Shown in pieces: positions 5,761 through 25,180 of a DNA stretch of 64,000 nucleotides. The translations under genes and the position numbers were made by a program. This stretch comes from Bryobacterales bacterium (lineage in GTDB: Bacteria; Acidobacteriota; Terriglobia; Bryobacterales; UBA6623). The DNA is taken from contig OY729428.2 in assembly GCA_963422375.2 (NCBI GenBank), positions 3,488,001-3,552,000 on the forward strand, given 5' to 3'. Under the pieces are notes generated by a model. The model was not told the origin of the DNA and did no database searches. It was given only the letters and a program-made list of their open reading frames with translations. Every line of letters starts with the position of its first letter. Position 1 is the first letter of the stretch.

Positions 5761-8544
5761 TCAGGGCGCGGCGAATTCGGACAGCCAGTTCAGCACGATG
5801 CGGATGCCCGGGTGCGACGGGCCACTCACCCACTCCGCGATCACGAAGCGGTCGCCGGGCCCGACGTCGTAGGTCGCGAATCGCCGTGGACCACTCAGCC
5901 TCTCGTGCGAGAAGAGCCGGAGCGGGTCTTCCATGCGAAAGCCTTCCTGCGTTCCAACCGGCACGGCGAACAGCGTATCGTCCCGGACGAAGTACAGAGC
6001 CCGGCCGTCGCTCCCCCAGCGGGCGAGCCGCCCGCCCTCGGTCGACACCTGCCAGTGCCGGTCGCCGGCCGGGAACGGCCTGACGTAGATGTTGAACTCC
6101 CCGGACTCGTTGCTCTCGTAGGCGACATACCTGCCGTTCGGCGAAAAGGCCGCGTTATCGACCGTGAAGGGGCCCTCCGGGAGGAAGTCCCCCATTTCCC
6201 AGTCCTCTCCGACCCGCTCCAGGTACGCGATCCGAGGGGACGCCCCCGGGACGACCCGCCTGCCCGGCCCGCTTCCGGCCGAGTCGGACGAGCTCCTGTC
6301 CCCCGAGCGGCGGCGCATCTGCACCAGAATATAGCGGCCGTCCCGCGACCAATCCAGAGGCTTGACCGCGCCGCCCGGCCCGGGGTACAGGGACCGCGCC
6401 GGGCTGTTCTCGTCGACGTCAACGACCGCGACCCCCGGCGTGCCGCGGTGCGAGAACGCGACCTGGCGGCCATCCGGCGACCAGACCGCGCCCGGCTCGA
6501 CCCGGTCGTCGAACGTCCGCCGCCTGATCACTTCGCGGCTCGACTCGTGCAGCCACAGTTCGACGGCACTCCCGCTGACTCCCGCGACGATTACCCGGTC
6601 GCCGGACGGCGACACGCGCGGCCCCAGAATCCGCGGCTGGGGGCGTCCCGCCGCCCCGAGCCGCCCGCCCCGACGGTCAAACCAGGAGAGGCGCATCTGC
6701 AGCGTCTCGGGAGTGTCGATGTACACCAGCGTGCCGTCCCTCGAGACCGACGGTTCCGTCGCGTCCCGAGCGATCACGAACGGCTCGCCCAAGGGCTCCA
6801 GGCCGTCCGGCGAGAACGGGAGCGCCGACAGCGCCGGCGTGAGGGCCGAGGGCTGGTACACAATGTGGCCGGACTCGGAGTAGACCGGGTCCGTGCCCTC
6901 GACCACGCGGACAGCGTCACCCGCCGCTTCGCTCGCCAAGCGGCGGGCCATGACGAAGTCTCCGTCGACGGTCCGCTCGGAATAGAGCAGCACCTGCTCG
7001 CCGTCGCTCGCGCCCACCAAGGCGAGGCTAGTGACGCTCGAACGGCGTCGCTGGGATCCCTCGAAGACGGGCTTGGGAATGCCTCCCAGCGCCGACACCG
7101 ACATCAGGGGCGCGCCCACGCGGCTGAAGACGATGGACTTCCCGTCGGGTGTCCAGGCTGCGCTGACGTGGCCAATGCCGGAATCCTCGACCAGCATCGT
7201 CGCCACCAAGCCCTCCACGGACACCCTGCCGATGCCTTGGCCGGTCACGAAGCCCACGAAACGGCTGTCGGGCGACCAGAAGACCTCCCGCGCCCCATCG
7301 GTCCCGTCGACGCGAAGGAGTTCGAGCCGGTCGAGCGGCTGCAGCCACAGGCTCCCTCCCGATCCGGTGGTGCTGAAGGCAATGAATCGCCCGTTCGGGG
7401 AGATCGCGAGCGACCCTATGCGGCGATCCGACATGCCGGCCTCGATCGGGCGCAGGGTGAAGCGTCGCAGCTGGCCGGGCCGGGCGCCGCCCCCGGTCGG
7501 AACCGCCAGGCCGGCGACGAAGGCGAGACCCACCGCGAACGCGAGACCGAGGCGCACCATCCAGCGGCGGGGCGCCACCGGGCCGCGCGCCGTAGCGGCC
7601 GGCGCCGGCGTCTCGGGCTTGCGGGCCGATGCGGAAAGGCTCCCCCCGGAAGGGACGGAGGGACGGTCCGCTTCCTCGCCTTCCCCGTCGATGAGCTGCA
7701 CGGACGTGCGCCCGCTCGCCGATCGGCGCTGCAGCAACTCGAGGTCGGCCACGAGCTCGCCGGCTTCCCGGTAGCGGTCCGCGGGCGACTTCGCAAGGCA
7801 TTTCTCGATGATCCACTCGAGCTCCATCGGCACCCGCGAGCGGAGCGAGGTGAGCGGGGCCGGAGCCTCGTTCAGGATCGAATACAGCACTGCCTGGTCG
7901 TAATGGCCCCGGAACGGCGGGTCGCCCGCCACCATTTCGTACGTCACCACGCCGAGCGACCACAGGTCGCTGCGGGGGCCGACATCCTCGCCCAGCGACT
8001 GCTCAGGAGACATGTAGGCGACCGTGCCCATGCGAGCGTCCGCCCGGGTCAGCTTGGACGCGCCCGAGATCTTGGCCAGGCCGAAGTCCATCAGCTTCAC
8101 GACGGGCCGCCCCGAGCCGTCCTGGCCGAGCATGATGTTGGACGGCTTGATGTCGCGATGCACGACGCCTGCCGCGTGGGCGGCCGCCAGGCCCTCCGCG
8201 GCCTGCCGGGCGATCTCGTAGGCTAGGTCCAGCGGCAGCGGCCCGCGCTGAATCCGCCGGTCGAGGGACTCGCCCTCCAGGTAGGCCATGGCGAGGAACG
8301 TCTCGCCGTCCTGCTCGTCGATCTCGTACACCGTGCAGATGTTGGGATGGTCGAGCGACGCGGCCGCCTGGGCTTCGCGCAGGAAGCGTTCGGCGTCGAC
8401 CCCAACGCCGGTGACTTCCTTGGAGAGGAATTTCAGCGCGACAGCGCGCTTGAGCCTCGTGTCCTCGGCCTTGTAGACGACTCCCATGCCGCCCTCACCG
8501 AGCGGCTCGAGAATCCGGTAGCGGGAGATTCGCCGGTCTCTCAT
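5761..8544 (-). CDS. Hanks-type Ser/Thr kinase with TM segment and TolB-like (PD40) beta-propeller
   Basis: GEGGMGVVY, VALKFL, HRDIKPSN, DFGLA and YMSPEQ; hydrophobic segment; repeated SPxGR/WSPDG propeller blades. Confidence 0.93.
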   Translation of the reverse strand: MRDRRISRYRILEPLGEGGMGVVYKAEDTRLKRAVALKFLSKEVTGVGVDAERFLREAQAAASLDHPNICTVYEIDEQDGETFLAMAYLEGESLDRRIQRGPLPLDLAYEIARQAAEGLAAAHAAGVVHRDIKPSNIMLGQDGSGRPVVKLMDFGLAKISGASKLTRADARMGTVAYMSPEQSLGEDVGPRSDLWSLGVVTYEMVAGDPPFRGHYDQAVLYSILNEAPAPLTSLRSRVPMELEWIIEKCLAKSPADRYREAGELVADLELLQRRSASGRTSVQLIDGEGEEADRPSVPSGGSLSASARKPETPAPAATARGPVAPRRWMVRLGLAFAVGLAFVAGLAVPTGGGARPGQLRRFTLRPIEAGMSDRRIGSLAISPNGRFIAFSTTGSGGSLWLQPLDRLELLRVDGTDGAREVFWSPDSRFVGFVTGQGIGRVSVEGLVATMLVEDSGIGHVSAAWTPDGKSIVFSRVGAPLMSVSALGGIPKPVFEGSQRRRSSVTSLALVGASDGEQVLLYSERTVDGDFVMARRLASEAAGDAVRVVEGTDPVYSESGHIVYQPSALTPALSALPFSPDGLEPLGEPFVIARDATEPSVSRDGTLVYIDTPETLQMRLSWFDRRGGRLGAAGRPQPRILGPRVSPSGDRVIVAGVSGSAVELWLHESSREVIRRRTFDDRVEPGAVWSPDGRQVAFSHRGTPGVAVVDVDENSPARSLYPGPGGAVKPLDWSRDGRYILVQMRRRSGDRSSSDSAGSGPGRRVVPGASPRIAYLERVGEDWEMGDFLPEGPFTVDNAAFSPNGRYVAYESNESGEFNIYVRPFPAGDRHWQVSTEGGRLARWGSDGRALYFVRDDTLFAVPVGTQEGFRMEDPLRLFSHERLSGPRRFATYDVGPGDRFVIAEWVSGPSHPGIRIVLNWLSEFAAP

Positions 8545-11511: not shown

Positions 11512-12693
11512 ATGGACATCACGCGCCGGCGCTGGGCCGTCGGTATGGCGGTCGCGGGCCTGGGCTGCGGCGCGAGCCGCGACGGCGGCTCCGAACCCGG
11601 GACGCCGGGCGACCGGGAGCGCGCCGGCGCGCTCCGCCCGGTGATCGACCTGCACTGCGACACGCCAATGCTCTTCCGCGACGGGGGCTACGACCTCGGC
11701 GCGCGGAACGAGCGCGGGCAGGTCGACATCCCGCGCATGCGCGAGGGCGGCGTGAACGCGGCGTTCTTCTCCGTCTACACCAGCGCCGCCCGGCGCAGCG
11801 AGCCGGAAGCCCTCCGCGAGGCACTCGAGATCATCGACTCGATCTATCGCGAGGCCGAGCGCTTTCCCGCCGACCTGGCCGTCGCGACGTCGACCGCCGG
11901 GATCGAGGCCGCGGTCCGCGAGGGCCGTATCGCCGTGCTGCTCGGGATCGAGGGCGGGCACATGATCGACAGCTCCCTAGCCGCGCTGCGCACGCTCTAC
12001 CGCCTGGGCGGGCGCTACCTGACGCTCACGCATAGCAAGGACACCGCCTGGGCGGGCTCCTCCGGCAGCGACGCCAACGCCGGCCTGTCGGAGTTCGGAC
12101 GCGAGGTCGTGGCGGAAATGAACCGCCTCGGGATGATGGTCGACATCTCTCACGTGTCCGACAGGACATTCTGGGACGCCTTGGCAGCGTCCGTCGCGCC
12201 GGTGATCGCGTCGCATTCCTCGGTGCGCGCCATCGCGGCGCACAAGCGGAACATGTCGGACGAGATGATCCGCGCCACCGCCGAACGGGGCGGGGTGGTC
12301 CACATCAACTACTACAACGCCTTCCTAGACGACGACTACGCTCGGCGGAGCCGGGAGTGGAACTCGGAGAACCCCCGGGCGGGCACGAGCGGCGTAGCCC
12401 GATTGCAAGCCAAGCTGGCCGCGATCGGCCGGCCCGCCATCGACGTGCTCCTCGATCACCTCGAGCACGCCGTCCGCGTCGGCGGGATCGAAGCCGTGGG
12501 CCTGGGATCGGACTTCGACGGCGTGGACGGCGAGTTGCCGGCCGGAATGGAGGACATCTCGAAAGTCCCGAATATCGCCGCGGGCCTGTCCGCGAGAGGC
12601 TTCAGCGACACGCAGGTCGAGAAGGTGCTGGGCGGGAACTCGCTGCGAGTCTTCCGGGACGTGGAGGCCGCGGCCCGGGCGGCAGCGGCCTAG
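11512..12693 (+). CDS. Membrane dipeptidase (peptidase M19), exported
   Basis: IDLHCDT, GIEGG, YLTLTH, VDISHVS, IASHSS, HKRNMSD and GLGSDFDG; twin-Arg-like N-terminus with GLGC. Confidence 0.92.
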   Translation: MDITRRRWAVGMAVAGLGCGASRDGGSEPGTPGDRERAGALRPVIDLHCDTPMLFRDGGYDLGARNERGQVDIPRMREGGVNAAFFSVYTSAARRSEPEALREALEIIDSIYREAERFPADLAVATSTAGIEAAVREGRIAVLLGIEGGHMIDSSLAALRTLYRLGGRYLTLTHSKDTAWAGSSGSDANAGLSEFGREVVAEMNRLGMMVDISHVSDRTFWDALAASVAPVIASHSSVRAIAAHKRNMSDEMIRATAERGGVVHINYYNAFLDDDYARRSREWNSENPRAGTSGVARLQAKLAAIGRPAIDVLLDHLEHAVRVGGIEAVGLGSDFDGVDGELPAGMEDISKVPNIAAGLSARGFSDTQVEKVLGGNSLRVFRDVEAAARAAAA

Positions 12694-13535
12694 ACGAGAC
12701 CCGCCGGATTCGACAGCGTGCCGATTTCCGGCACCCGGATGGAGCAGACGTCGCCGGGCTGCAGCGCGGCCTCCTGCCCGACGATGATCCCCGTGCCGGT
12801 CAGCACGACCGTGGGGGTCGGCAGGGCGTTGCTGCGTCGGAGGTAGCCGATCAACTCCTCGAAAGTACGGCGCAGCTTGTCCGTCGAGACGCTGCCCTCG
12901 AACGTGGACCGGCCGTTGCGGCTGATCGTGCAGGACATGCTCAGAGAGTAGGGATCGGGGACGTCGCCCGGCGTGACGAGCGCGGGACCGAGAGCGCAGC
13001 AGGCGGTGTAGACCTTCGACTGGGGCAGGTACAGGGCGTTTTCGCGCTCGATGTCCCACGCCGAGACGTCATTGCCCAGCGTGTAGCCCAAGATCGCGCC
13101 GGTGGATCCGATGACGACGGCCAGTTCGGGCTCCGGCGCGGTGAACGTGGAGTCCCGGCGAATGCCGATCATCTCGCCCGGGCCCACGCAGACGCGGGCG
13201 GTTCCCTTGAAGAAGATCTCGGGACGGTGGCCCTGCTTGTGGACGTAGGAGTACATGCCGTCTGTCGTCCCGAGCTCGCCGTCCCGGAAATCTGCGCTGG
13301 GGGCGTAGGTACAGCCGCAAGCCCACACTTCGGCGGGCCGCAGGGGCAGCAGCGCCGCGCCCTGCACGAGCTCGCCCGTGGCGCGACCCGCCACCAAGCT
13401 CTCCACGGTCCGGCCGCTCGCGTCGGCCTCCTCCAGCAGCGCGTTCACGGTCGTGCCCGGCAAGGTCAGGTATCCGCCCTCCCGCTGCAGGGCCGCAAGG
13501 GTCTCGCCCCCATGCGAGACTTGCGCCAGCTTCAT
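12690..13535 (-). CDS. Fumarylacetoacetate hydrolase family protein (2-keto-3-deoxy-pentonate dehydratase-like)
   Basis: EVWACGCTY, RPEIFFKG, PEPELA, GNDVSAWDIERENALYLPQSK and LTGTGI; SD ggagg upstream of ATG 13535. Confidence 0.88.
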   Translation of the reverse strand: MKLAQVSHGGETLAALQREGGYLTLPGTTVNALLEEADASGRTVESLVAGRATGELVQGAALLPLRPAEVWACGCTYAPSADFRDGELGTTDGMYSYVHKQGHRPEIFFKGTARVCVGPGEMIGIRRDSTFTAPEPELAVVIGSTGAILGYTLGNDVSAWDIERENALYLPQSKVYTACCALGPALVTPGDVPDPYSLSMSCTISRNGRSTFEGSVSTDKLRRTFEELIGYLRRSNALPTPTVVLTGTGIIVGQEAALQPGDVCSIRVPEIGTLSNPAGLV

Positions 13536-13633
13536 CGAACCACCCTCCAGATTACATGGTGGCACAGGCCCGCCGGCCGCCGCGGGACCGGCGACCAGCG
13601 GAGCGGACGCAGCGGACGGGCCGGCCAAGCACC

Positions 13634-15913
13634 CTAGGCCGAGCCCAAATCGAGCCGGTAGGCACTCTTCCCGATCCGCACTACGTCGCCGCTCCCCGCC
13701 CGCAAGGGCCTGTACGGCTCCGCGTCGAGCGCGCCGAGGCGCGTGCCGCAGGTGGAATCCAAGTCCTCGATCCAGATCGCCCCGTTCTCGAGCCGGAGTC
13801 TAAGGTGGCGCCGCGATACATTCAGGTCCCGGAGACTCACGTCGCACCGATTCCTTCCCCGCCCGACCACAAGCCCCTCGGGCGACATCAAGAGACGCGG
13901 GTCCAAGGGAATTCGGCCCGAGCCGTCGAGCGGGACGAGCGCGGCGGCCACCGCGGGAGCGGCCCGCCCGATCGGAACCAAGGCCGGGCCCTGGCGGTTC
14001 ACCGGCGCGGGGACCGGCGGCGGGGAGGCGGACGCCCGGCGCCGCGCCTGCATCGGGGATGAGAGCGCCCAGCCGGCTAGGGCCGCGACCACCAGCAGGG
14101 CGAGCGCCGCGCCGATCCACGCGCTTGCCCTCGAGTCGCCCGGGGGCCTGCCCGGCCCGCCGGGCGAGTCCTCCGGCGGTTCCGCGTGCGGGGGCGCGGG
14201 GCCGGGCACGGTCGGAGGCGCTCCCCCTCCGGCAACAGGGTCGCGGGGCGGCGCCGAGGCTCCCCTGCCGCCACCGCTCCGGGAGACGGTCTCCCCTTCC
14301 TCCGGATCCGATATGCCGTCCGGATCGGGAGCCGCCGGGAGAACCCACGTGCCCGGCACGCCGACCGCGTCCATCGCCTGGTGGGTCGAAACCCATTCCC
14401 GCGAGCCTTCGCCGTGCAAGAGCTCCGCAGCGAGGGCGAAACCGAAGCGAGCGTCGCCGAAGCTGGAGTTCGGCGTCAGGAGGTGAACGGCCGCGCGCCC
14501 GACTATCTCCAGAGCCTTGGCCATGCCAATACCGACGACCGCGGGGCCCGATCGCCGGTCAGGGTGCCGCCCGCCCGCCGCGAGCAAGTAAAGGCCTTGG
14601 TTCATGATCGAAGAGTTGACATGCACGCCGCCGTGGTCCTCGTGCATCCACCGGTAATCGCTGTAGTGGTTGGGCATGCGGCCGACCCGGCGGGGATTCT
14701 GCAAGTCGCGGAGCGGCCCGGCGGGCGACCGCAGGCGCCAGATCTCGTCCGGTATATCCAAGTCCAAGCGCCCTCGCGTCTCCAGCCACGCTCGAAATCC
14801 CGCGCCAAGCACATCGGAGATCGATTCGCCAAGCGCGCCGGGCTCGTCCCTTCCGATGAGACCGCTCCCGCTTTCGACGATCCCGTGGCCGAGCTCGTGG
14901 CCGATGACTTCGGGAAACTTCGAGCCTTCGTCGGTGACCGCCAGCAGCCGCTGGCCGCTGTACCAAACCGCATTGAACTGGTCTCCGTCGCATTGGGGCC
15001 ACGTGTAGGGATTGTGGAACTTCACGCCTACCAGCCCCTGCAAGGTCCCGCCGCGTCCGTCGAAGCTGTCCATTTGCAGCGTCGTGCGGAGATACCCGTG
15101 AAACTCGCCGAACAAGTCGAAGACGGCGTTGACGGGGGCGCGAGACGACCGGCCGGTGGACTCGCTCCTCCCGAGATGCCCCGAGATCGCCCTCATGACC
15201 AGGCGAGTCGAATCGCCAATGTCCAGCGGACGACCTCTTCCGTATCCCCTGCAGGCGTCCTCAAAGTCGTAGATCCGCCGGTCAACCGCCGTGAATTCCA
15301 TGGGAAGGCGCTCGATGACGCGGCCCGAGCGGGCGTCGAGGTAGACCCGCTCGAAACGCGCGCCCGACGGGTTCGCGAACGCACCTTCGACCTCGTAGGC
15401 GAGCACGAGATCGCTGCCCGCCGGCCAGAACACCAGCCTCTGCCCGAGAACGCGTTGCGCGGGCGAGCCGGAGGCCCGGATCGCCGCGGCGAGTCCGAGC
15501 CGCGGCTCGGACCGAGGGAGGCCCAGAAACGGGTCATGCCGGCCGAGCAGGCGCGCCTCGGGGCGGTCGTCCGCCGCAACCAGGCGGGACTCCCGATTGA
15601 TCACCGGCAGGCCGCCGGCGAACTGCCTGAGAGTGAAGACGGTGCCGCGCCCGAGGCGCGCGGGTTCCGGCTCGACCAGCAGGCGGTCGGTCCGCTCCAG
15701 TCCGAGCAGGCGATGCAGCTCCCGGTTCGCCCAGCGCTGCACGGCTGCCGCATCCGCGAGGCCCGGAGGGGCCGGGACAGACAGGACCTCGGCCTCCCGC
15801 GCGACGGCGCCGCCCTCCTGGCCGCGCGCCCGGTCCGCCCCGGCCGCGAAGGCGAGCATCGTGCCCAGCCCGATGCCGGCGACGCACCGGCCCCGCCGAC
15901 TCCGGGAAGCCAT
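13634..15913 (-). CDS. Thermolysin-family (M4) metalloprotease with propeptide, Pro-rich linker, TM helix and C-terminal FHA domain
   Basis: Signal peptide; FTP (LRQFAGGLPV) and PepSY (LAYEV...YLDARSGRVI) propeptide. Catalytic NAVW, HELGH, GALGESISD and GGVHVNSS. TM WIGAALALLVVAALAGWAL; FHA motifs VVGR, VSRRH and DLDSTCGT. ATG lies 4 bp after the PP2C stop. Confidence 0.9.
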   Translation of the reverse strand: MASRSRRGRCVAGIGLGTMLAFAAGADRARGQEGGAVAREAEVLSVPAPPGLADAAAVQRWANRELHRLLGLERTDRLLVEPEPARLGRGTVFTLRQFAGGLPVINRESRLVAADDRPEARLLGRHDPFLGLPRSEPRLGLAAAIRASGSPAQRVLGQRLVFWPAGSDLVLAYEVEGAFANPSGARFERVYLDARSGRVIERLPMEFTAVDRRIYDFEDACRGYGRGRPLDIGDSTRLVMRAISGHLGRSESTGRSSRAPVNAVFDLFGEFHGYLRTTLQMDSFDGRGGTLQGLVGVKFHNPYTWPQCDGDQFNAVWYSGQRLLAVTDEGSKFPEVIGHELGHGIVESGSGLIGRDEPGALGESISDVLGAGFRAWLETRGRLDLDIPDEIWRLRSPAGPLRDLQNPRRVGRMPNHYSDYRWMHEDHGGVHVNSSIMNQGLYLLAAGGRHPDRRSGPAVVGIGMAKALEIVGRAAVHLLTPNSSFGDARFGFALAAELLHGEGSREWVSTHQAMDAVGVPGTWVLPAAPDPDGISDPEEGETVSRSGGGRGASAPPRDPVAGGGAPPTVPGPAPPHAEPPEDSPGGPGRPPGDSRASAWIGAALALLVVAALAGWALSSPMQARRRASASPPPVPAPVNRQGPALVPIGRAAPAVAAALVPLDGSGRIPLDPRLLMSPEGLVVGRGRNRCDVSLRDLNVSRRHLRLRLENGAIWIEDLDSTCGTRLGALDAEPYRPLRAGSGDVVRIGKSAYRLDLGSA

Positions 15914-15917
15914 GCAC

Positions 15918-17468
15918 TCAGCGAACTGCCGGGCGACCGGTCTGGAGCACCAGCGGCTCGCGGAACAGGACCGCACCAGTTGCAGGATCCAGGATCACGC
16001 GCTCGGAGCCACGCCCCGTAGCGACACTACCCGACCAAGCGACGACGTCCGTTCGCCCGTCCATCCGGACGACCACGAGCGAACCCTCGTCGAGCGGATC
16101 GATGTCCTCTCCGCTCGCCCGTTCCGCCAGGGCCACCGTCTCCGGGTAATCCCTCGCGGGCGGGCCGTCAACCTCAATCCGGGACGCAAGATGGCCGTCC
16201 ACGCGAATCACGCGGCTCCCCTCGGTCGTGGCAACCACTTCCGCGGCGAACACCGGCATTCCCTCGTGAGTCTGGCCGAAGCGTGAAACGGTCGTCCCGC
16301 CGATGCGGCCCGGACTGCCCTTCGGCGCGAGCGTGTCCGCGGGGCCGATCCGGCCCGCCTGCCGCAATTCGTCCTCAATCGCGCTCGCGAGGGATTCCCC
16401 GGTCTTCAGCCTCCTGTCCAGACTGACGTGCAGGCTGTCGATCGGCACGGGAGAGCCCGGCCCGCCGCCGGACTCGCTGCGCCCGCCCGATTCCGACGCC
16501 CCCTCGGCGGGGGAGGCGCCGCCCTCCCGACTACCGCCCTCCCTTGCTCCGGCCCCCTCCCGGCCCTCGGCTTGGGCCGCCAGGGAGTAGCTCGGGCCCG
16601 CCCCGCCGGCGAAGAGCGCGGTCGCGCGGCCCGCGGCCGAGGTCGCCTGGCCGCGGGCGTCCCGACCGGCCGGCAGGAGCGCCGCGGCGAGGCCCGCGCC
16701 AACGAGAGCGGCCAGCGAGAGCCAGTACCACGCGACGCGGGGCCCCGGATCGATCACCGCGAGAATCGCCGTGGTGTTGTCATGTCGCTCGAGCTCGGCC
16801 AGCTTGCCCTCGTAGGCCGCGGCGACGGCAGTCCCCGGATCGGCGGATTCGAACAGCGCGACGATCTCGCCGTCGGAAAAAATCTCCCAGAAACCGTCGC
16901 TGCAAATGACGAAGCGAGTGCCGCGCGCAAGGCGCCACCGCTTGAATTCCGCGTCCGGAGGGGCCTCGCCTCCGACGTGGGTCAGCAAGTGCGTCTGGCT
17001 CGGGTGCGTGGCCAGCTCGGCCTCCGAGATCGCGCCGCGCAGCACGTTCAGCTGCGCCATGGAGTGGTCCAGGGTGCGCACGGCGAGGCCGGCCCGCGAA
17101 TACTGCATGACGCGGCTGTCCCCGGCATGGACCGAAACGGCCTCGGAGCCCCGCACCAGCAGGGCGGCGAGCGTGGAGCGCGGATCGAGACCCGCCGCCC
17201 TGCCCGCAGCGTTGACCCGCTCGTGGCACTGGCTCACCAAGGATCGCAGGAAGTCCTCCGACCGCCAGTCGCGTCCGCGCCGGGCCCAGAGATCGGCGGC
17301 GGTGTCCACGACAGTCTGCGCGGCAAGCGAGCCGCCGCGATGACCGCCCAGCCCGTCGGCAACCAGGAACAGGGATCCGTCGCCATCGCCGGACCGCAGA
17401 ACCGTCAACCGATCCTGGTTCTCCTGCCTCTGCCCGACGTGGGTGAAGGCATGGGCGGTTGCGTTCAC
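15918..17468 (-). CDS. PP2C-family Ser/Thr phosphatase fused via TM helix to an M4-type propeptide (FTP/PepSY-like) domain
   Basis: RQENQD, VADGLGG, HAGDSR, CSDGFW and HDNTT; TM WYWLSLAALVGAGLAAALL. C-terminal SRFGQTHEGMPVFAAEVV...V.G (FTP-like) and VILDPATGAVL (PepSY-like); no HExxH. Confidence 0.85.
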   Translation of the reverse strand: MNATAHAFTHVGQRQENQDRLTVLRSGDGDGSLFLVADGLGGHRGGSLAAQTVVDTAADLWARRGRDWRSEDFLRSLVSQCHERVNAAGRAAGLDPRSTLAALLVRGSEAVSVHAGDSRVMQYSRAGLAVRTLDHSMAQLNVLRGAISEAELATHPSQTHLLTHVGGEAPPDAEFKRWRLARGTRFVICSDGFWEIFSDGEIVALFESADPGTAVAAAYEGKLAELERHDNTTAILAVIDPGPRVAWYWLSLAALVGAGLAAALLPAGRDARGQATSAAGRATALFAGGAGPSYSLAAQAEGREGAGAREGGSREGGASPAEGASESGGRSESGGGPGSPVPIDSLHVSLDRRLKTGESLASAIEDELRQAGRIGPADTLAPKGSPGRIGGTTVSRFGQTHEGMPVFAAEVVATTEGSRVIRVDGHLASRIEVDGPPARDYPETVALAERASGEDIDPLDEGSLVVVRMDGRTDVVAWSGSVATGRGSERVILDPATGAVLFREPLVLQTGRPAVR

Positions 17469-17508: not shown

Positions 17509-18621
17509 TCAGATCCCGAGAATGGCGAGCAGCACGCTGCCAGTGAAGGATTCCCCGCCCGCGGCGTCGACGAATTGGCCTTTGCCTACCTGCGCAAGCT
17601 GACGCAGGAACAAGTCGGCCTTCCGGCGATCTCGGTTGTTGTCGTTCAGGTTCGCCCTGACTGTGGAGACGAATTGGCCCGGGCTTGATGCGAACAGCTG
17701 GGCTGCCCGAATCGCGGCCGCCTCCCTGTCCGGATACGCCGCGTTGTCCGTGATCGCGATGACGTAGCGGCGCTCGCTCTCGGGTCTCCAGTTGGAGTTG
17801 ATCGCCATCTCCACGGCCGTCGCAACCATCTCGGGTCCGTCCCTGTTGAGTCTGTTCCTAGTTCGGTCCATTTCCGGCCTGAGCGTGGAGACGAACGAGC
17901 GGACCTCGGCAAGACGGGACGTCGGGACAATCCTTCTCTCGTAGATCGGCGGGACCCATGTGCGGTCACCGAACGCGATGACCCCGATGCCTACGGACGG
18001 GGCCAAGCTGTCCAGGAGCTGTGCCAGCGTCCCGATTTCATTCTTCAGGCCCGCGATCTGGTCGGTCATGCTGGAGGTCACGTCGAGGCAGATCACGAGG
18101 TCCATGTCGGGAATCCGGGCTTTTGCGAGAGCGGCCTCCAGTTCGCTCACATTCTTCCGCGATTCCGCGAGGCTGGCCTTGATCTCGTCGACTTCCCGCT
18201 CGAGGGCCCGTTCCCTAGCGAGGTTGCCTGCCTCCTTCTTCCTGCCCGCCTCTGCGGCCTTCCTGCTCGCCTCTGCCGCGGCCAGGACCTCCTGAAGTTC
18301 CGCGATCTTCTGCTGGGCTTGCTCGACTTGGGCGAGAGCTTCGTCCAGGGCTCCGGCCAGCGCATCGCTGTCTTCGGCGTCGCTCCGCACTTGCGCCAGC
18401 ACGGCCTCAAGGCTGCGCGCCCTCTCCGCGACACGGTCGCGGTCCCGGATCGCTTGGGCCAGCTCCGCCTGCACGGCCTCGACCTGGTCGCGCGAGTCAC
18501 CGGTATTCGGGAAGAACGGCAAGGCCATGATCGACAGCAGGATGAACGCGCCCATGCCTGAGGCGAACAGGTCCAGCGCTGAGATGGAGAAGACGTTGAG
18601 TTCTCGCCGACGAAATGTCAT
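17509..18621 (-). CDS. Membrane-anchored coiled-coil + von Willebrand factor A domain protein
   Basis: N-terminal RRR plus hydrophobic segment containing Asp (SALDLFASGMGAFILL); long Ala/Glu-rich coiled coil; MIDAS-like DLVICLDVTSSM and IAITD. Confidence 0.85.
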   Translation of the reverse strand: MTFRRRELNVFSISALDLFASGMGAFILLSIMALPFFPNTGDSRDQVEAVQAELAQAIRDRDRVAERARSLEAVLAQVRSDAEDSDALAGALDEALAQVEQAQQKIAELQEVLAAAEASRKAAEAGRKKEAGNLARERALEREVDEIKASLAESRKNVSELEAALAKARIPDMDLVICLDVTSSMTDQIAGLKNEIGTLAQLLDSLAPSVGIGVIAFGDRTWVPPIYERRIVPTSRLAEVRSFVSTLRPEMDRTRNRLNRDGPEMVATAVEMAINSNWRPESERRYVIAITDNAAYPDREAAAIRAAQLFASSPGQFVSTVRANLNDNNRDRRKADLFLRQLAQVGKGQFVDAAGGESFTGSVLLAILGI

Positions 18622-19284
18622 GGCCCCGTGCCGGGTTGCAACCGCCTCGTCATCTAGCGCCCCCGTCGAAGTCACGCCCGGGAGGGCGCGACGCCAAGCC
18701 GCGACTGCCTGCTCGACCAGCCAAGCGCCGAGCCTTGAGCTCGGTCGAGCAGGCGGGACGCACCGGTTTCCGAGTTTCCGCTTGGCACCATTGTGCGCAC
18801 CAGGACCGGGTCCCGCTGATTCGGCTCGCGGAACCGGCAGACGCCCGCATGGACCCGAAGCCGGAGCGCGTCGCCGCCAGGGGACCGGACCGGAATTCCG
18901 CGAATGGCGAGTCGAGCCCGCCTCGAAGGGGCCCGGCTACTTCGCCGGCAGTGCAAGCAGCGGGTCTCCTCCGCATGGAGGCGGCCGCGCGACGGCTCCG
19001 CCTGAACTGACACAGCGCCATCGCGACCTTTACGCTGCCACGCAGATCTCTGGCTCGGCCCGGCACTCGACCATCCCCCTTCAAGACGCACCGCACTGCG
19101 AGACGGTTTCTCAAGGGACTGCCCTGGCTTGGGACCTCGGACAGTCTGGGCTGGCGGCAGCAAGACGGACTCGAACGACCAACGCCGGCCCGGCGAGGAT
19201 CCAGTCGGCCTCTCGCGAAGCGGCGCTAGAAAGGATGTGTACGCAGAATCGGCGGCCGGTGCGTCTGATGGCACCGAGACCGGA

Positions 19285-21942
19285 ATGTCGCAGACGGGCC
19301 CCGAAGAACGCGGTCATCGCGCCGCCCCGCTCCCAACCGGACCGGATGCTCCGGAATCCGGCGCGGCGGAGGACTCCGGCCCGCCGACAGACGCCTACCG
19401 GCGCGGGCCGTACCTGCCCCCCGGCACGGTACTGAACCGGGCGTACGCCACTCGGTCCGTAGTGGGACAGGGTGGCTTCGGCGTCGTCTACGAAGCCACG
19501 CACTTGCAGCTGGAGCATCCGGTAGCGATCAAGGAGTACTTCCCGGAGGAATTCTGCGTCCGCGTGGGCGATGCCGTCCATGCCAAGAGCACGGTTGCCA
19601 AGGCTTGTTTCGACGACGGCATGAAGCGCTTCCGCGAGGAAGCGAAACGCCTGATCGAACTCAGGGGCTCGCCCAACGTCGTGGCGTATCGAGAGTTCTT
19701 CCTTGAGAACGGCACAGCCTACATCGTCATGGACTTCGAGGACGGCATGCCGCTGTCGGAACTTCTCGCGAGGCGGGAGGCGGCGGGCCGGGGATTCGAG
19801 GAGCGCGACCTAGTCGCGGTCATGGTTCCCGTGCTGAGAGGCCTGCAGAGGCTACACCAAGCCGGCATTTTCCACCGCGATGTCAAGCCCGGGAACATCC
19901 TGATCCGACGCAGAACCGAGCAGGCCGAGGAGGTTCCTGTCCTGATCGATTTCGGCGCGGCGAAGCAAGCGTTCGCCGAGCACTCCAGGACGAACGCACC
20001 GCACACCCCCGGGTACGCGGCCCTCGAGCAGGTCGGGGAAGGGGATCTCGGACCTTGGACAGACGTGTACGCGGCGGGGGCCGTCATGTGGCGAATGGTC
20101 GCTTGCGGGAGCTCCGCAAGCGGCTCCGATGGTCCCGTGCGTGTGGAGAGCCGGGTGATGGCGAGGTTGCGCGGGCGACCCGATCCGATGCCTAGGGCAG
20201 TCGAACTCGGGCGAGGGCGATTCTCTCCGAGACTTCTCGAATTGATTGAACAGTGCTTGGAGTTGAGGGAGTCCGACCGCGTAAAAGATTGCACTAAAGT
20301 CCTGCAAGTGCTCCAATCTATTCACAGAAATAGAGGTCCAGATTCCGGTTTAATAGATCTGAATATTCGTAACGATTGGACTGCTAAATCGGCAGTCTAC
20401 AATATGGATATGGACACCAAGTCAAGCGGAATATGGCGGTCAAAAATAATGGCATTAGCGCTTGTATTTGCAGTGATAGGATGCGTAGAATCAGCGGTTA
20501 TAATCAAGAATTCATGGCACGACTCGACCCGGACTGAGGCAGCCGACTCGACACCTTCCACGGTGGGGAGCGGAAACAAAGCAACGGACCTGCCGACTTC
20601 CTTGCCAGCGAAGTCCCAGGGAAAATCCTCGTCTGCGCCGAGCATCCCAAGCTTTAGAGTCGAAGTCGAACCTTCGGATGCCGCTGTGTTCTTCTCCAAC
20701 GAGGCTCAACCGTACACGGCGGGAATACCTCTGGCCCTAGGGACGTACGAGCTCGATTTCCGAGCCGTCGGGCACCAGCCTCTGAGTACGTCAATCCAGC
20801 ACGACGGGTCGGGCACGGTGCCGAGAGTCGCATTGCAGTCTCTGGAAGTGCCGCCGCTCACGCCAAGGGCTCGGAGCCCCTTCAAGCCGACTGTTCAGCC
20901 TCGCCCCGCAGAGGCCGCGCAGCGGCCGAAGCCCGGACAGGATCCCGAGCAGTCCAGACCGGCTTCCACGGACATACTCGGCACCGGCCCATCCAATGCG
21001 TCGACAGCTCCGAACACGCAGGCGATTCATGCCGGGCCAAGCCCGTCCGCTCTCCCGCCCGAGGTCGATCCGGCACCTGCCGCGCACGTCGTGCCGCCGA
21101 CCGTCGCCGAGCCGGACCTCGGCGAACTGGCGAAGGACGCATGGCAAGAAGCGAGGGATTCAGACAGCCCGGAAGTCCTGGGAGCTTTCATTGACACATT
21201 CGATGGCAGGCGAGGTGCCAGTCTCTGGGTCACACTGGCAAAGGACCGCCTAGCTAAGCTGCCGGCGTCGCCGGTGGCTCCGACGAACGCGCCGGTGCCC
21301 CCGAAGCAGCCGATTCGCATCGGAGGGAACATCGCAAGGGCCCGACTCACGCACCAGATCCGGCCGCGCTATCCTCCGCACGCCCGGCAGGCTCGTGTCG
21401 AAGGCACAGTCAAACTGTCGGCAATCATTGCACGGGACGGGACGGTCCAGAGTCCTCAAGCTACCTCCGGCCACCCGCTCTTGATCCCAGCGGCGTTGGC
21501 CGCCGTCAAGCAGTGGCGCTATCGGCCGACCCTGCTGAACGGAGTGCCCGTCGAGGTTCTCACAAGCATCGAATTGAATTTCACGTTGGGGGACAGGCCT
21601 GATACAACGACCCCGGACAAGAGGCAGTCTCCAAGTCCAAGGCCCGCTCCGAGGCTCGATCAGCCCAAGCGAGACTTCACCAAGCCGCAGCTAGCGGTTC
21701 AGGTCAAACCGTCGTACCCAATGACCGCTCGCCGGGCGCGAGTGGAGGGCACGGTTAGACTCCGCGTGACCATTGCAAAGGACGGAACAATCAAGGAGGC
21801 TAGGGCCATGTCAGGTCATCCTATTCTGGTGCAATCTGCGGTCAATGCAATGAAGAAATGGCGTTACTTTCCGACAATAAAAAACGGAATTTCCGTCGAT
21901 ATTGTCACGAATATAGACGTTAAATTCGAACTGAATCCATGA
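19285..21942 (+). CDS. Hanks-type Ser/Thr kinase with TM, PEGA-like segment and two TonB C-terminal domains
   Basis: GQGGFGVVY, AIKEYFP, HRDVKPGN, IDFG and TPGYAALEQ; TM IMALALVFAVIGC. Two YP..AR.ARVEGTV...DG...SGHP.L...A..A.K.WRY.PT..NG repeats. Start uncertain (ORF is open from 19129). Confidence 0.88.
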   Translation: MSQTGPEERGHRAAPLPTGPDAPESGAAEDSGPPTDAYRRGPYLPPGTVLNRAYATRSVVGQGGFGVVYEATHLQLEHPVAIKEYFPEEFCVRVGDAVHAKSTVAKACFDDGMKRFREEAKRLIELRGSPNVVAYREFFLENGTAYIVMDFEDGMPLSELLARREAAGRGFEERDLVAVMVPVLRGLQRLHQAGIFHRDVKPGNILIRRRTEQAEEVPVLIDFGAAKQAFAEHSRTNAPHTPGYAALEQVGEGDLGPWTDVYAAGAVMWRMVACGSSASGSDGPVRVESRVMARLRGRPDPMPRAVELGRGRFSPRLLELIEQCLELRESDRVKDCTKVLQVLQSIHRNRGPDSGLIDLNIRNDWTAKSAVYNMDMDTKSSGIWRSKIMALALVFAVIGCVESAVIIKNSWHDSTRTEAADSTPSTVGSGNKATDLPTSLPAKSQGKSSSAPSIPSFRVEVEPSDAAVFFSNEAQPYTAGIPLALGTYELDFRAVGHQPLSTSIQHDGSGTVPRVALQSLEVPPLTPRARSPFKPTVQPRPAEAAQRPKPGQDPEQSRPASTDILGTGPSNASTAPNTQAIHAGPSPSALPPEVDPAPAAHVVPPTVAEPDLGELAKDAWQEARDSDSPEVLGAFIDTFDGRRGASLWVTLAKDRLAKLPASPVAPTNAPVPPKQPIRIGGNIARARLTHQIRPRYPPHARQARVEGTVKLSAIIARDGTVQSPQATSGHPLLIPAALAAVKQWRYRPTLLNGVPVEVLTSIELNFTLGDRPDTTTPDKRQSPSPRPAPRLDQPKRDFTKPQLAVQVKPSYPMTARRARVEGTVRLRVTIAKDGTIKEARAMSGHPILVQSAVNAMKKWRYFPTIKNGISVDIVTNIDVKFELNP

Positions 21943-22090
21943 GATAGTCTCTTTCATATGCTTTATATAGTTCTTGTGACAGAACGCACAAGCCCTTAGT
22001 TTCCGGGCAGTTGCAGCAAGTCCGTGGGACGAAGATCGGGCCGATCCGGGTCGGCTTGCGCGTTTCCGGGGGTTGTGCGACAATCTTCGT

Positions 22091-22217
22091 CCTGATTACC
22101 CACAAGACTCAGCCAAGGTTAGGAGGCGGTAAGGCATGGGTGGGGTGCGCACGGAGGCGTGGAGCAGGCGGGGGACCAGCGCCTCCAGATCGTGGCGGCG
22201 TCTTGTGGGTAATCGGG
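22091..22217. mobile_element. Miniature derivative of the IS1595-family element at 24148-25180 (3' end plus inverted copy of the same end)
   Basis: 22091-22200 is nearly identical to 24148-24257. 22200-22217 is a 17/18 inverted copy of 22091-22108. Confidence 0.75.
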
Positions 22218-22486
22218 AAGATTGCCGCGCTTTGGGCCCTCGCACAAGGGCGGCAGTTGCACGATGCCGAGGCCCTCGAGCGCCGCCAGCAGGCGCAGGG
22301 CCAGCTGGACGCGGCTGTTGCCCCCGGGCGTCTGCCAGCGTAACTGCTCGCGGATCGTATGGCGCAGCTCGGTGCGTCTGAGGGCCGGGAACGTCTCCAC
22401 GGTTTCCTAGACGCCGGCGATCTGCTTGCGCGTCAGGCGGCACCCGAAGAAGGTGGTCGACTGAGCTTCTCGATGCGTGGGTCCAT
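22218..22486 (-). pseudogene. DUF4338-like (IS-associated) protein N-terminal remnant
   Basis: MDPRIEKL/(frameshift)STTFFGCRLTRKQIAGV*ETVETFPALRRTEL...W.TP.G...LEGLGIVQLPP; recognised from recalled family N-terminus. Contains a frameshift and an internal stop. Confidence 0.6.
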
Positions 22487-22628
22487 GCGATCCTGCTGCC
22501 GGGCTCGGCCATAGAATAGGCTGGCGAACGGCTCCGAAGAAGTCAGGTCCGTGTCGAGAAATTGTGGGAATCTTATACCCGAGTTCCGAGGCAACCGATT
22601 TGGCAAATTATCAATCCATAAATGAATT

Positions 22629-24139
22629 GGGAATTATATATCTGAGTGCCGACAACGCCATATCCGACTAGAACTGCTGTGAGCAGGGAGGTGGGTGTCG
22701 AGCTGGGGTCATGCGAGTGCGGCCGCGGCGGGCACAGAGGGGGGGTGGGGGGTGGGATCGTATCTGAATCGAGCCTGCCAGCGGATTGGACGAGGAAGGG
22801 ACTAGAGAGGCCGCCTCGCATGCCCCGGTGAAACCCGGTTGGCGGTGGCAGGGCACCCCTTGCAAGCCGCTTGCAGGCCCTGCGAGGGCCGAAGACAGCG
22901 GATCCCCGGCGCTCGACGGCCTGCATGGACGGTCCGGGCCGGACCGGGGTCGCGCCGGGGCATTCCGGATCCGGTGCGACCCTCGTACCGAGCGTGCAGC
23001 GCGCGCCCGCAGCGGGCTGCCGCGCTCGGCGCGGCGGGCGCCGCTCAGGCCGCGACCGCGGCCTTGCCGGTCAGCTGCCGGTAGGTCAGCGTCCGGCCGA
23101 CCAAGCCCCGCGCCATGCGCCGCATCCGTTCCGCCGTGTCGCAGTCGCGGTCGTTGCGCCGTCCCGCGAACTCCGTGAGGTAGCGGCCGAGATGACGGAC
23201 GCTCATCCGGTGATAGGTTCCGTACAGGCCGCGCTCGAACAGGGACCGGAACGACTCGATGCCGTTCGTATGCGCTGCCCCGCGCACGTACTCGCCGCCG
23301 GAGTGCCTGACGGCTTCGTGCGCGAACTCCGCCATGCCGGCGCAGGCCGCCGCCTCGTCGGAGCGGACCTGCGCGCCCGGCGCGACCCGGCCGCGCACGA
23401 AGCCCTGCAGGTCGCCCTTGGCGGTGGCCGGCAGCGGCCGCGCAGCCACTGCGTTCGTGGCGCGGTCCCGCGCCCCCGCCACGGGCGTCTTGCCGACGGG
23501 CCCGCGCCCGGCGCGGGCCTTCTTCCTCTCGTGCTTGTTGCGTTCCTTGCCGCCGACGCAGGTCTCGTCCACCTCCACCGGGCCGGCGAACAGGCCCTGA
23601 TCCCGCTCCCGGCACGCGCGGATGCGGTGCGCCAGGTGCCAGGCCGACTTCCGGCTGATGCCCGGGTCGCGGTGCAGCTTCATGCTCGAGACGCCCTTGA
23701 TGCCGGTGGTCGGCAGGAACAGGGCGACGGCCCGGGTGCGGTAGCCGAGCTTGGTGTCGGCCATCACGCTGCCGGTGCGCACCGAAAAGCGCTTGCCGCA
23801 GCCGCGGCAACGGTACGGCATCGAAGGGTGGGCCGCGTCGGACTGCACGCTGGAGCCGCGGCAGCGGGGGCACGCGGGACCGTCCGGCCAGCGCATGGAG
23901 GCGAACCACTTTTCCGCGGATTCGTCATCGGGGAACATGGCGATCACTTCGATCAATGTGATGCCTTTACGGAACCACTTTCCGGGACCTGATTTCTTCA
24001 TTTACGGTATCCCCTACTGGAACTATTCTACCAAGAAATACCACAGAATTTCAACGGAAAATCGGAAGAAATATGAAATCTTATAATGGCTTGATAATTT
24101 GCCGACTTGATTCCCTCGGCACTCAGATATATAATTCCC
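22629..24139 (-). mobile_element. IS1595-family insertion sequence
   Basis: Perfect 24-bp IRs at 22629-22652 and 24116-24139; 8-bp direct repeat AATGAATT at 22621-22628 and 24140-24147. Confidence 0.93.
23045..24001 (-). CDS. IS1595-family transposase (open frame but degenerate at conserved residues)
   Basis: RWPDGPACPRC...YRCRGC zinc ribbon, VEVDET, SDEA, HTNGIESF and HL.RYL.EF. Confidence 0.88.
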   Translation of the reverse strand: MKKSGPGKWFRKGITLIEVIAMFPDDESAEKWFASMRWPDGPACPRCRGSSVQSDAAHPSMPYRCRGCGKRFSVRTGSVMADTKLGYRTRAVALFLPTTGIKGVSSMKLHRDPGISRKSAWHLAHRIRACRERDQGLFAGPVEVDETCVGGKERNKHERKKARAGRGPVGKTPVAGARDRATNAVAARPLPATAKGDLQGFVRGRVAPGAQVRSDEAAACAGMAEFAHEAVRHSGGEYVRGAAHTNGIESFRSLFERGLYGTYHRMSVRHLGRYLTEFAGRRNDRDCDTAERMRRMARGLVGRTLTYRQLTGKAAVAA

Positions 24140-24147
24140 AATGAATT

Positions 24148-25180
24148 CCTGATTACCCACAAGACTCAGCCAAGGTTAGGAGACGGTAAGGCATGGGCGG
24201 GGTGCGCACGGAGGCGTGGAGCAGGCGGGGGATCAGCACCGCCAGATCGTAGCGGCGGTTGAAGCGGTAGCAGAACTCGGCGAGGTAGCGCGGCAGGTGC
24301 TTGCCGTCGAGTGCATGGCAGGTTCCCGCCAGGGACTGCTTGACGTTCGCCAGCATCGTGTTGACCCGGACGAAGCGGGAATCCCCGCAGCTCCGCTGCC
24401 CACCTGCGGTGACGGTCGGCACGTGCTCGCAGCCGGCGTCGGCCACGCCCCGCAAGCAGGCCAAGCCGTCGGAATGCACCTCCGTGCCGGGCTGCAGGTG
24501 CCGCCCGGCCCATGCTGCCAGCGTCTTCTTGCGGAAGCCCGCCACGCTGCTCAGGCGCATCCTTGCCGGCTGGCCGGCGGCGCTGACCTGCACGGCGGCC
24601 ACGAACGGCGTCTTGCCCGCCGCGCCGCGCCCGCGCTTGTCGCCGCTCCGCTCCCCGCCCCGGTAGGCGTCGTCCACCTGCACGATGCCGCCCGGCGGCA
24701 CGCGCTCGTCGCGCTCCTTCATCACTTGCAGGAGCTTGTGCTTCATCTTCCAAGCCGTGTTCCGGCTCACGCCCAGCTGCCGCGCCAGTTCCAGCGACGA
24801 AACGCCGTGCTAGCCCTGCGTCAGCAGGTGGAGCGCCAGGAACCAGACGGTCAGCGGCAGCTTGGTGGCGGCCAAGATCGTGCCGGCGACGAGGGAGGTC
24901 CGGCGGTGGCAGGCGTTGCACTGCCAGAGCTTGCGGGAGCGGATGCGGCAGTGCCGGCGGGAGCCGCACTCCGGGCAGCGGAAGCCGTCCGGCCAGCGGG
25001 CGTTGCAGACGGCCTGCTCGCATGGCCCCTCGCTGCCGTAGCGCTGCAGGAACTTGCCCAGGCTGAGTCCCTTCTGGAATTGCACGCGATTGCGTTTCAT
25101 CTGCTATCCCCTTTCCTAGCAGAGATTTCCGACCTCCTTCAGTATAGCATATCCTCGGCTGACGTTCGTTGGTAATCAGG
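24148..25180 (-). mobile_element. IS1595-family element (second subgroup, ISSod11-like)
   Basis: Imperfect 24-bp IRs cctgattacc...tcagcc and ggctga...ggtaatcagg; flanked by AATGAATT at 24140-24147 and 25181-25188. Confidence 0.9.
24153..25100 (-). pseudogene. IS1595-family transposase with in-frame TAG at 24810-24812
   Basis: ORFs 24810..25100 and 24153..24770 share a frame: RWPDGFRCPEC, QVDDAY.GG, KRGRGAAGKTPFV, SDGL and RYLAEFCYRFNRR. Confidence 0.9.

Follow-up and report, generated by a model that had tools for sequence, protein, structure and literature searches.

In a 64,000-nucleotide stretch of a Bryobacterales genome (assembly GCA_963422375.2, contig OY729428.2, positions 3,488,001 to 3,552,000; the whole stretch is here denoted the window) two adjacent minus-strand genes encode what appear to be the halves of one device. 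The downstream gene, at 13634..15913, encodes a thermolysin-like protease of peptidase family M4 joined through a transmembrane (TM) helix to an FHA domain. The upstream gene, at 15918..17468, encodes a PP2C-type protein phosphatase whose outer domain has the sequence features of an M4 propeptide. We propose, at roughly even odds, that the M4-FHA protease and the PP2C-propeptide protein form a two-protein transmembrane module. An earlier note on this DNA described the protease-FHA fusion and overlooked the main feature, a PP2C neighbour that carries an extracytoplasmic M4 propeptide and that in relatives is fused to the protease.

An M4 protease joined to an FHA domain through a membrane helix

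The open reading frame (ORF) at 13634..15913 on the minus strand is open and encodes 759 amino acids from its ATG; a GTG at 15976 would extend the product to 780. We read the order of its parts as signal peptide, pro-like N-domain, M4 catalytic domain, proline-rich stalk, TM helix and FHA domain. The central observation of the earlier note, that protease, TM helix and FHA domain stand in one ORF, was borne out, with Pfam detecting Peptidase_M4_C at residues 351-519 (E 1.2e-31, 110 bits, cut-off 24.4) and FHA at residues 682-748 (E 1.9e-11, 44.7 bits, cut-off 20.7). The second match also answers the doubt, voiced in the same note, that the C-terminus might not fit FHA profiles. The N-lobe model Peptidase_M4 reached 17 bits, under its cut-off of 22.4. 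An AlphaFold2 model of the protein, built on 22 homologues, has a mean pLDDT of 74.7, the low-confidence parts being the N-terminus, the proline-rich stalk and the inner linker.

The earlier note also listed a signal peptide and a propeptide at the N-terminus. Residues 1-27 (15833..15913) make a predicted signal peptide, with a basic N-end followed by a hydrophobic stretch, and the model places a helix at residues 7-29. The pro-like N-domain (residues 44-205; 15299..15784) resembles a diverged M4 propeptide, which we denote type B. In Foldseek its model matched the propeptide chain of vibriolysin MCP-02, 3nqy_A, with a TM-score on target of 0.58, and the profile of the protease family matches the same chain at E 3.9e-4.

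The catalytic domain spans residues 206-528 (14330..15298). In Foldseek the whole mature fold of thermolysin-like enzymes was matched by its model (TM-score on target 0.69-0.72), and an alignment of the sequence to thermolysin covers chain residues 82-315 (E 3e-29). The zinc motif HELGH (residues 339-343) lies at 14885-14899, one base away from the position given previously (14884-14898); GALGESISD is found at 14813-14839 and GGVHVNSS at 14609-14632. Equivalents of thermolysin His142, Glu143, His146, Glu166, Asp170, Arg203, Asp226 and His231 are kept, as HELGH, Glu363, Asp367, Arg402, Asp426 and His431. In M4 enzymes the transition-state residues are His231, with Asp226, and Tyr157 (thermolysin numbering). 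The alignment places Gly354 at the position of Tyr157 and Gly362 at that of Asn165. The earlier description of an intact M4 active site holds for the three motifs and has to be qualified at the Tyr157 equivalent. Judged by its zinc site, its catalytic His and Asp and its predicted fold, the protein is a member of family M4 with one atypical residue.

The part beyond the protease agrees with the earlier sketch of a proline-rich stalk, a TM helix followed by RRR, and an FHA domain with the Gly-Arg and Ser-x-x-His residues. The stalk, predicted to be extracytoplasmic and disordered, covers residues 529-596 (14126..14329), with pLDDT below 50 at residues 532-593. The predicted TM helix (residues 597-619; Kyte-Doolittle 19-residue mean 2.2) maps to about 14057..14125, where 14065-14130 had been given, and RRR directly follows it at 14036-14044. 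The FHA domain, predicted to be cytoplasmic, occupies residues 656-757 (13643..13948); its model matched the FHA domain of FhaA (3oun) with a TM-score on target of 0.84, and 3poa with 0.83. The Gly-Arg, Ser-x-x-His and Asn residues of FHA domains have roles in phosphopeptide binding. Gly684-Arg685 (13859-13864) and SRRH, with Ser700 and His703 (13805-13816), are kept, and in the alignment to FhaA the canonical Asn is replaced by Cys722. By profile, modelled fold and these core residues we regard the domain as a true FHA domain.

The architecture defines a rare family with the protease predicted outside and the FHA domain inside

A word-indexed search with the window protease returned 44 relatives at E <=1.5e-87, followed by a gap and then by ordinary M4 enzymes at E >=5e-19; in the precomputed Pfam annotation 40 of the 44 carry FHA together with the M4 domain. 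When 1.84 billion cluster representatives were searched exhaustively, 114 matched at E <=1e-30, and Pfam was run on 47 of them. Both M4_C and FHA were detected in 42 of the 47, six of which have two or three FHA domains; the remaining five are M4 enzymes of the ordinary secreted kind. The proteins P0202, P0204-P0207 and P0215 make up a diverged branch of the family in which two or three FHA domains follow the TM segment.

Residue conservation was read from 90 proteins that have an FHA domain, 101 such domains in all, and an almost complete catalytic domain. The HExxH motif and the equivalents of Glu166, Asp170 and Arg203 are found in all 90, and that of His231 in 89. Tyr occupies the Tyr157 position in 85 of the 90, the window protein being one of two with Gly. 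The FHA Gly, Arg, Ser and His are invariant (101/101), and the canonical Asn is present in 19 of the 101 domains. The stalk has a median length of 75 residues and a median proline fraction of 0.29. A TM-like segment separates protease and FHA in every one of the 90 proteins (median hydropathy 2.63), and in 82 of them the 15 residues after this segment are richer in Lys and Arg than the 15 before it. These two features support an outer protease and an inner FHA domain as a property of the whole family, and agree with the type I topology suggested previously. The protease part also holds a family-specific pair of cysteines (Cys221 in 89/90 and Cys308 in 90/90), which fits an extracytoplasmic location of the protease.

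The earlier note had also raised misassembly, and this can be ruled out. In Logan, one contig of 9930 nucleotides in each of three runs of one study spans 13600-16500 with 0 differences; that study may be the source of the window DNA. A contig of 2432 nucleotides from a run of a second study spans 13600-15113, covering FHA, TM helix and HELGH, again with 0 differences. No RNA run is listed among those holding the stretch. That the M4-FHA fusion is an artefact of assembly or gene calling is therefore vanishingly improbable: contigs of two studies bridge the junction without differences, the counts above place M4 and FHA together in most relatives, and all 90 homologues of the same architecture have the TM segment between the two domains.

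The M4-FHA system is rare and phylogenetically patchy. When 185,579 species genomes were scanned, two of the 80 best loci proved to be true members (denoted L006 and L007), and in the other 78 the matches end at or before query residue 582; one of the candidates set aside, L008, is an ordinary secreted M4 enzyme with an F5/8C domain. In a scan of metagenome contigs none of the best 80 loci matches past query residue 581, and ordinary M4 enzymes dominate. In a sample of 400 further genomes of Acidobacteriota, the phylum of the window, at least one encodes an M4-FHA protein; this genome also appeared in the phylum sample drawn for the Bryobacterales MAG G401. The carriers are metagenome-assembled genomes (MAGs) of Acidobacteriota and, by record names, Gammaproteobacteria such as Halioxenophilus sp. 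WMMB6, Pseudomonas sp. WN033 and Thioalkalivibrio. The names in the public records are 'M4 family metallopeptidase', 'hypothetical protein' and 'protein phosphatase 2C domain-containing protein', and no NCBIfam model reached its cut-off for either the protease or the PP2C protein.

The phosphatase gene upstream encodes an M4-type propeptide

The upstream gene (15918..17468, minus strand, 516 amino acids) is co-oriented with the protease gene, and its stop codon lies 4 nucleotides before the protease ATG. Its product begins with a PP2C domain (residues 1-240; 16749-17468), in which Pfam PP2C_2 matches residues 10-204 (E 1.6e-18, 67 bits, cut-off 24). There follow a hydrophobic segment predicted to be a TM helix (residues 245-268; 16665-16736), a low-complexity linker and a C-terminal domain, of which residues 345-512 (15933-16436) correspond to an M4-type propeptide. 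The model of the protein has a mean pLDDT of 80.7, with the C-terminal domain confidently folded. The PP2C part matched Stp1 and PstP with TM-scores on target of 0.82-0.86; the Foldseek matches for this model are PP2C chains, and the identity of the ectodomain rests on profile search. Across 28 sequences Asp19, Asp38-Gly39, Asp191-Gly192 and Asp230-Asn231 are nearly invariant; the acidic residues of these motifs presumably bind the metal ions.

For the ectodomain, the Pfam FTP model gave a borderline 20.7 bits in the window protein (cut-off 21) and 32.5 bits in the orthologue at L007. A profile built from 28 PP2C-propeptide homologues matches the thermolysin prepro form 5a3y at residues 78-140 (E 2e-7), the MCP-02 propeptide chain 3nqy_A (E 1.5e-6) and pro-elastase at residues 53-193 (E 6e-4). 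On these matches the ectodomain of the PP2C protein is best read as a full M4-type propeptide. The PP2C-propeptide family comprises 87 matches at E <=3e-53. Of 68 split PP2C-propeptide proteins, 66 have their C-terminus no more than 15 residues from the propeptide's end, so that the phosphatase gene closes at the point at which a mature protease would start.

The propeptides were also compared by bit score, with a model built from the PP2C-borne copy. PP2C-borne and fused copies scored 114-185 bits with this model, and the propeptides of ordinary M4 enzymes 20-56 bits. Of the split M4-FHA proteins, 30 reached the threshold, with 12-38 bits for their N-domains; the window protease's own N-domain was absent among the matches listed. 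From these ranges the PP2C-borne copy appears to be the more canonical propeptide and the N-domain of the protease a diverged one. An hhalign comparison of the PP2C protein with the protease profile, confounded by the fused forms in that profile, served only for residue alignment.

Phosphatase and protease are fused in nature

In at least 13 homologues PP2C, M4_C and FHA are present in one chain (11 of the 44 relatives from the word-indexed search and two more). The fused proteins are about 1020-1190 amino acids long and, as seen in P0034, have the order PP2C, TM, propeptide, M4, stalk, TM, FHA. Residues 26-519 of P0034 (1109 amino acids) align with the whole window PP2C protein at 46% identity (E 2e-128), and from residue 399 the same chain aligns with the window protease from residue 87 at 42% identity. 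With the exception of P0187, the fused forms bear the PP2C type of propeptide (114-163 bits). Among named strains, Pseudomonas sp. WN033 has a fused protein (PAU89532.1) and Halioxenophilus sp. WMMB6 a split one (WP_317932712.1).

In a quick maximum-likelihood tree of 108 catalytic domains (IQ-TREE, SH-aLRT support, midpoint-rooted) a single clade (support 98) unites the 13 true ordinary M4 enzymes, and the fused state changes at least four times on well-supported branches, as gains or losses. For example, split P0020 is the neighbour of fused P0034 (support 100), and split P0186 that of fused P0187 (support 98). Deleting, in frame, everything between the phosphatase-borne propeptide and the catalytic domain would create the fused form. 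Conversely, autoprocessing of a fused protein, of the kind known from M4 zymogens, at the pro/mature boundary marked by 'LP...DRRIYDF' would yield two membrane proteins like those of the window, and in the single-chain relatives such processing would turn one protein into a two-part switch.

Repeated natural fusion is a classic sign that two proteins interact. The notion that the propeptide binds the protease draws on these fusions, in which this type of propeptide directly precedes the catalytic domain.

Genomic context supports a link of the pair to Ser/Thr phosphorylation

Gene context was read in five loci, the window, L006, L007, L168 and L175. In the window, upstream of the PP2C-propeptide gene, lies a minus-strand gene at 17509..18675 for a coiled-coil vWA protein which, by Pfam and TM prediction, is membrane-anchored and periplasmic, with an N-terminal TM anchor preceded by RRR. 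Its likely true start is the ATG at 18621, where orthologues begin with 'MR(T/L)RRRE'; the listed GTG start adds 18 residues that are probably untranslated. For this reason the N-terminal tail (T2, T4, T14, T20), considered as a ligand of the FHA domain, was rejected. Divergently oriented on the plus strand, at 19129..21942 (start codon uncertain), is a gene for a Hanks-type Ser/Thr kinase with a TM helix at residues 438-458 and two TonB_C domains.

The same gene types recur in the other loci. L006, in the Bryobacterales MAG G401, reads kinase, kinase, vWA, PP2C-propeptide, M4-FHA, kinase. L175, 10 kb upstream in the same genome, reads MotA/ExbB, FHA, PP2C, a 571-residue TM-FHA protein, kinase, vWA, M4-FHA. 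In L007, from a second Bryobacterales MAG, the order is MotA/ExbB, FHA, PP2C, Trypsin_2-coiled coil-TM-FHA, vWA, PP2C-propeptide, M4. In L168 (Acidobacteriota) it is kinase, MotA/ExbB, FHA, PP2C, a 472-residue TM-FHA protein, PP2C-propeptide, M4-FHA and two kinases. The PP2C-propeptide gene stands directly upstream of M4-FHA in the window and in three of the four other loci. The vWA gene is present in the window, L006, L007 and L175, where it is co-located with PP2C and kinase genes, and is absent from L168. In 11 of 32 split-type relatives the longest contig is identical in size to that of a PP2C-propeptide match, a weaker hint that the two genes lie on the same contigs.

All the locus kinases belong to one Ser/Thr kinase subfamily (35-51% identity, 221-306 bits between loci), and they match an unrelated window kinase at 42-88 bits only. 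The latter, of another subfamily, is a 927-residue Ser/Thr kinase with PD40/WD40-like beta-propeller repeats encoded at 5761-8544 on the minus strand. A link of M4-FHA to Ser/Thr phosphorylation is supported by this context, because the PP2C gene lies 4 nucleotides upstream and one kinase subfamily is found at or near every locus read.

The kinases allow a simpler explanation as well. The FHA domain could recruit a tethered protease, from inside the cell, to phosphorylated envelope proteins such as the kinases, with the propeptide acting as a chaperone or safety inhibitor and no signalling involved. The invariant FHA core residues, the constant proximity of kinases, the conserved active site and the protease's own pro-like domain all agree with it. 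We nevertheless think it unlikely, since it gives no account of why a phosphatase should bear the propeptide in 68 split proteins, nor of the fusion of that phosphatase to protease and FHA domain with its four or more changes in the tree.

The combination of vWA, kinase, phosphatase and FHA also brings to mind a threat-sensing or conflict system, in which the surface protease would be an effector against invaders or competitors. Sets of these domains are described in conflict and threat-sensing systems in the accessible parts of PMC7159879 and PMC13622651; each locus has several paralogous kinases whose sensor domains differ; and the occurrence is rare and patchy, as seen in the sample from the phylum. 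Against this, PADLOC has no model that fits the protease, and PP2C and kinase match there only through generic domains. The loci read showed neither a MoxR ATPase nor a nucleic-acid effector, the predicted place of the vWA protein is the periplasm, and the word thermolysin does not occur in the accessible text of PMC7159879. We consider such a role improbable.

Several further features of the loci were noticed. The two M4-FHA genes of G401, at L175:11421-13970 and L006:9407-12073, lie 10 kb apart, and the first directly follows a vWA gene. The M4-FHA gene at L007:9746-12058 loses its FHA end where a DDE transposase gene (12121-13944) follows. The module of MotA/ExbB, FHA and PP2C genes stands directly beside M4-FHA in L007, L168 and L175; in the window genome it is about 700 kb away and makes up a second cluster for phospho-signalling at the envelope, at L169 (G000:C2:2784000-2801000), with genes for MotA/ExbB, a small FHA protein, PP2C/SpoIIE and a 554-residue TM-FHA protein. 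A paralogous kinase near this module has PEGA and two TonB_C domains. We also noticed a second type of protease-TM-FHA protein, with a signal peptide, a Trypsin_2-like domain, a long coiled coil, a TM segment and a cytoplasmic FHA domain. It is encoded at L007:5523-7010, L168:6704-8122, L175:4063-5778 and L169:5341-7005, and Pfam detects Trypsin_2 only in the L007 copy. The two TonB_C domains occupy the periplasmic part of the kinases encoded at 19129-21942 (+) in the window and at L169:14745-16820; together with the MotA/ExbB genes of the linked module they hint that the kinases may receive an energised input across the envelope in the manner of TonB.

Beyond the kinase gene, the stretch at about 21950-23040 contains no ORFs with high GC content at third codon positions (GC3), and three ORFs for IS1595-type (ISXO2-like) transposases follow at 23045-24001 (-), 24153-24770 (-) and 25264-26163 (+). 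Rfam gave nothing in 18000-24000.

A model for coupling between proteolysis outside and phosphorylation inside

In the module that we propose, the M4 catalytic domain would lie in the periplasm and the FHA domain in the cytoplasm, and the protein would work as a pair with the PP2C-propeptide protein. The propeptide borne by the phosphatase may bind the protease from outside as a tethered chaperone-inhibitor, as the cleaved propeptides of classical zymogens do. Such contact would set PP2C next to FHA at the inner face of the membrane. There the FHA domain would dock on phosphothreonine written by the membrane Ser/Thr kinases of the locus, most likely on those kinases themselves, and PP2C would remove the mark to which FHA is bound. 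Were the propeptide lost, displaced or degraded outside, the protease would be freed and PP2C parted from the FHA-bound targets, so that proteolysis outside would be coupled to phosphorylation inside.

What the data show are the domains, the signals of topology, the propeptide's identity, the conserved neighbourhood or fusion of the two genes and their kinase context. We infer binding of the propeptide in trans, the ligand of the FHA domain and the direction of signalling; outside-in and inside-out operation are both possible. That the pair constitutes a new signalling device, in which engagement of propeptide and protease outside sets whether PP2C sits by the FHA-bound targets inside, converting proteolysis into Ser/Thr phosphorylation or the reverse, we put forward only tentatively.

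Several points weigh against the proposal. The window protease keeps a pro-like domain of its own, so a second propeptide is not obviously needed and might compete with it. The second M4-FHA gene of G401, at L175, has no adjoining PP2C-propeptide gene, and P0136 (340 amino acids), the PP2C neighbour in one gammaproteobacterial clade, appears to be without a propeptide. In the window copy, which is missing the Tyr157 and FHA Asn equivalents, full catalysis and full peptide binding are not assured. The earlier note took the protease to be positioned or activated by phosphothreonine, which may be so; no conserved phospho-acceptor was found, and the inner linker contains no Thr in 13 of the 90 family proteins, the window's included. 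Finally, the context is known from five loci only. A conserved Thr in the cytoplasmic linker, considered as an intramolecular FHA ligand, was dropped in view of the same 13 proteins.

The protease might instead act as a proteolytic switch, cutting the ectodomain of a partner and so toggling signalling, as site-1 cleavage does in regulated proteolysis. Candidate substrates would be the coiled-coil vWA protein, the PP2C-borne propeptide and, in the kinases, the sensor parts with TonB_C, PEGA or TPR. All the partners are bitopic, with domains predicted to lie in the periplasm, vWA is found in the window and in three of the four other loci, and the Trypsin_2 type of protease-TM-FHA protein occurs in the same loci. 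On the other side, no cleavage site or substrate was identified, and vWA is missing from L168. We judge such a switch to be quite unlikely as a separate explanation; nothing here separates it from the coupling proposed above, of which it may be a part.

Comparison with known systems

With the classical M4 zymogens (thermolysin, Bacillus neutral protease, vibriolysin MCP-02 and pseudolysin LasB) the window family shares the zinc site, the catalytic residues and the two-lobe fold, as well as an N-terminal propeptide of the FTP/PepSY type. The classical enzymes are soluble and secreted, whereas the window family has a C-terminal TM tether and a predicted cytoplasmic FHA domain. It also differs in its own Cys pair and, in the window copy, in the absence of the Tyr157 equivalent, and the system includes another propeptide, closer to the canonical type, which is carried by the PP2C membrane protein. 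According to the accessible part of PMC6490944, an M4 propeptide folds its enzyme and, after cleavage, stays bound to it as an inhibitor.

Two systems provide a precedent for separately encoded chaperone-inhibitors. In YpeB-SleB of Bacillus subtilis, PepSY domains hold an enzyme in a membrane complex (PMC13556211, in the part available); the target there is a peptidoglycan lytic enzyme and not a protease, and in that part neither partner is described with a cytoplasmic signalling domain. In RhpC-RhpP of Pseudomonas savastanoi an M4 protease is inhibited by a separately encoded, co-transcribed binding protein which mimics a propeptide in function; the available portion of PMC6490944 presents the pair without a membrane tether, FHA or PP2C.

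On the cytoplasmic side, the solved folds closest to the FHA and PP2C parts are those of FhaA (3oun) and PstP (1txo) of Mycobacterium tuberculosis. PstP consists of PP2C, a TM helix and an extracellular domain. The outer parts of PstP and FhaA are not known to be a protease or a propeptide. Gene sets for vWA, kinase, FHA and PP2C have the same four domain types as the loci described here, FHA reading the mark of the kinase and PP2C erasing it. The 'TerY-P triad' is counted among such sets, and the products of vWA, PP2C and kinase triads are described as soluble and cytoplasmic. The accessible text of the sources describes vWA, kinase, FHA and PP2C together in Deinococcus DRA0331-0334 (bioRxiv 10.64898/2026.01.23.701218) and in ArnA-ArnB of Sulfolobus (PMC6509490), and sets of kinase, PP2C and vWA in Kaur et al. 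2020 (PMC7159879). In all these sets the domains are described on cytoplasmic proteins, vWA among them. Here, by prediction, PP2C and FHA lie at the cytoplasmic ends of two membrane proteins that end outside in a propeptide and a protease, and vWA lies in the periplasm.

A possible input to Hanks-type kinase signalling

In the literature covered, which leaves subscription journals and supplements aside, nothing was found that joins FHA domain, thermolysin and PP2C, or Peptidase_M4_C with FHA. The terms peptidase, thermolysin, FTP and PepSY do not occur in the accessible main text of a 2025 survey of bacterial PP2C domain arrangements. Each of the domains is well known; new, as far as this literature goes, is their arrangement, in which the reader and the eraser of a phosphorylation mark appear to be the cytoplasmic ends of a protease and of its propeptide.

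For most Hanks-type kinases the input mechanisms are undefined. The pair described here suggests a hitherto undescribed link between proteolysis outside the cell and protein phosphorylation inside it, and its carriers include named strains, with records not labelled as MAGs, in which the idea can be tested. Should the contact between propeptide and protease govern how close phosphatase and reader lie to each other, bacteria would possess a novel route by which proteolysis beyond the cytoplasm is tied to Hanks-type kinase signalling.

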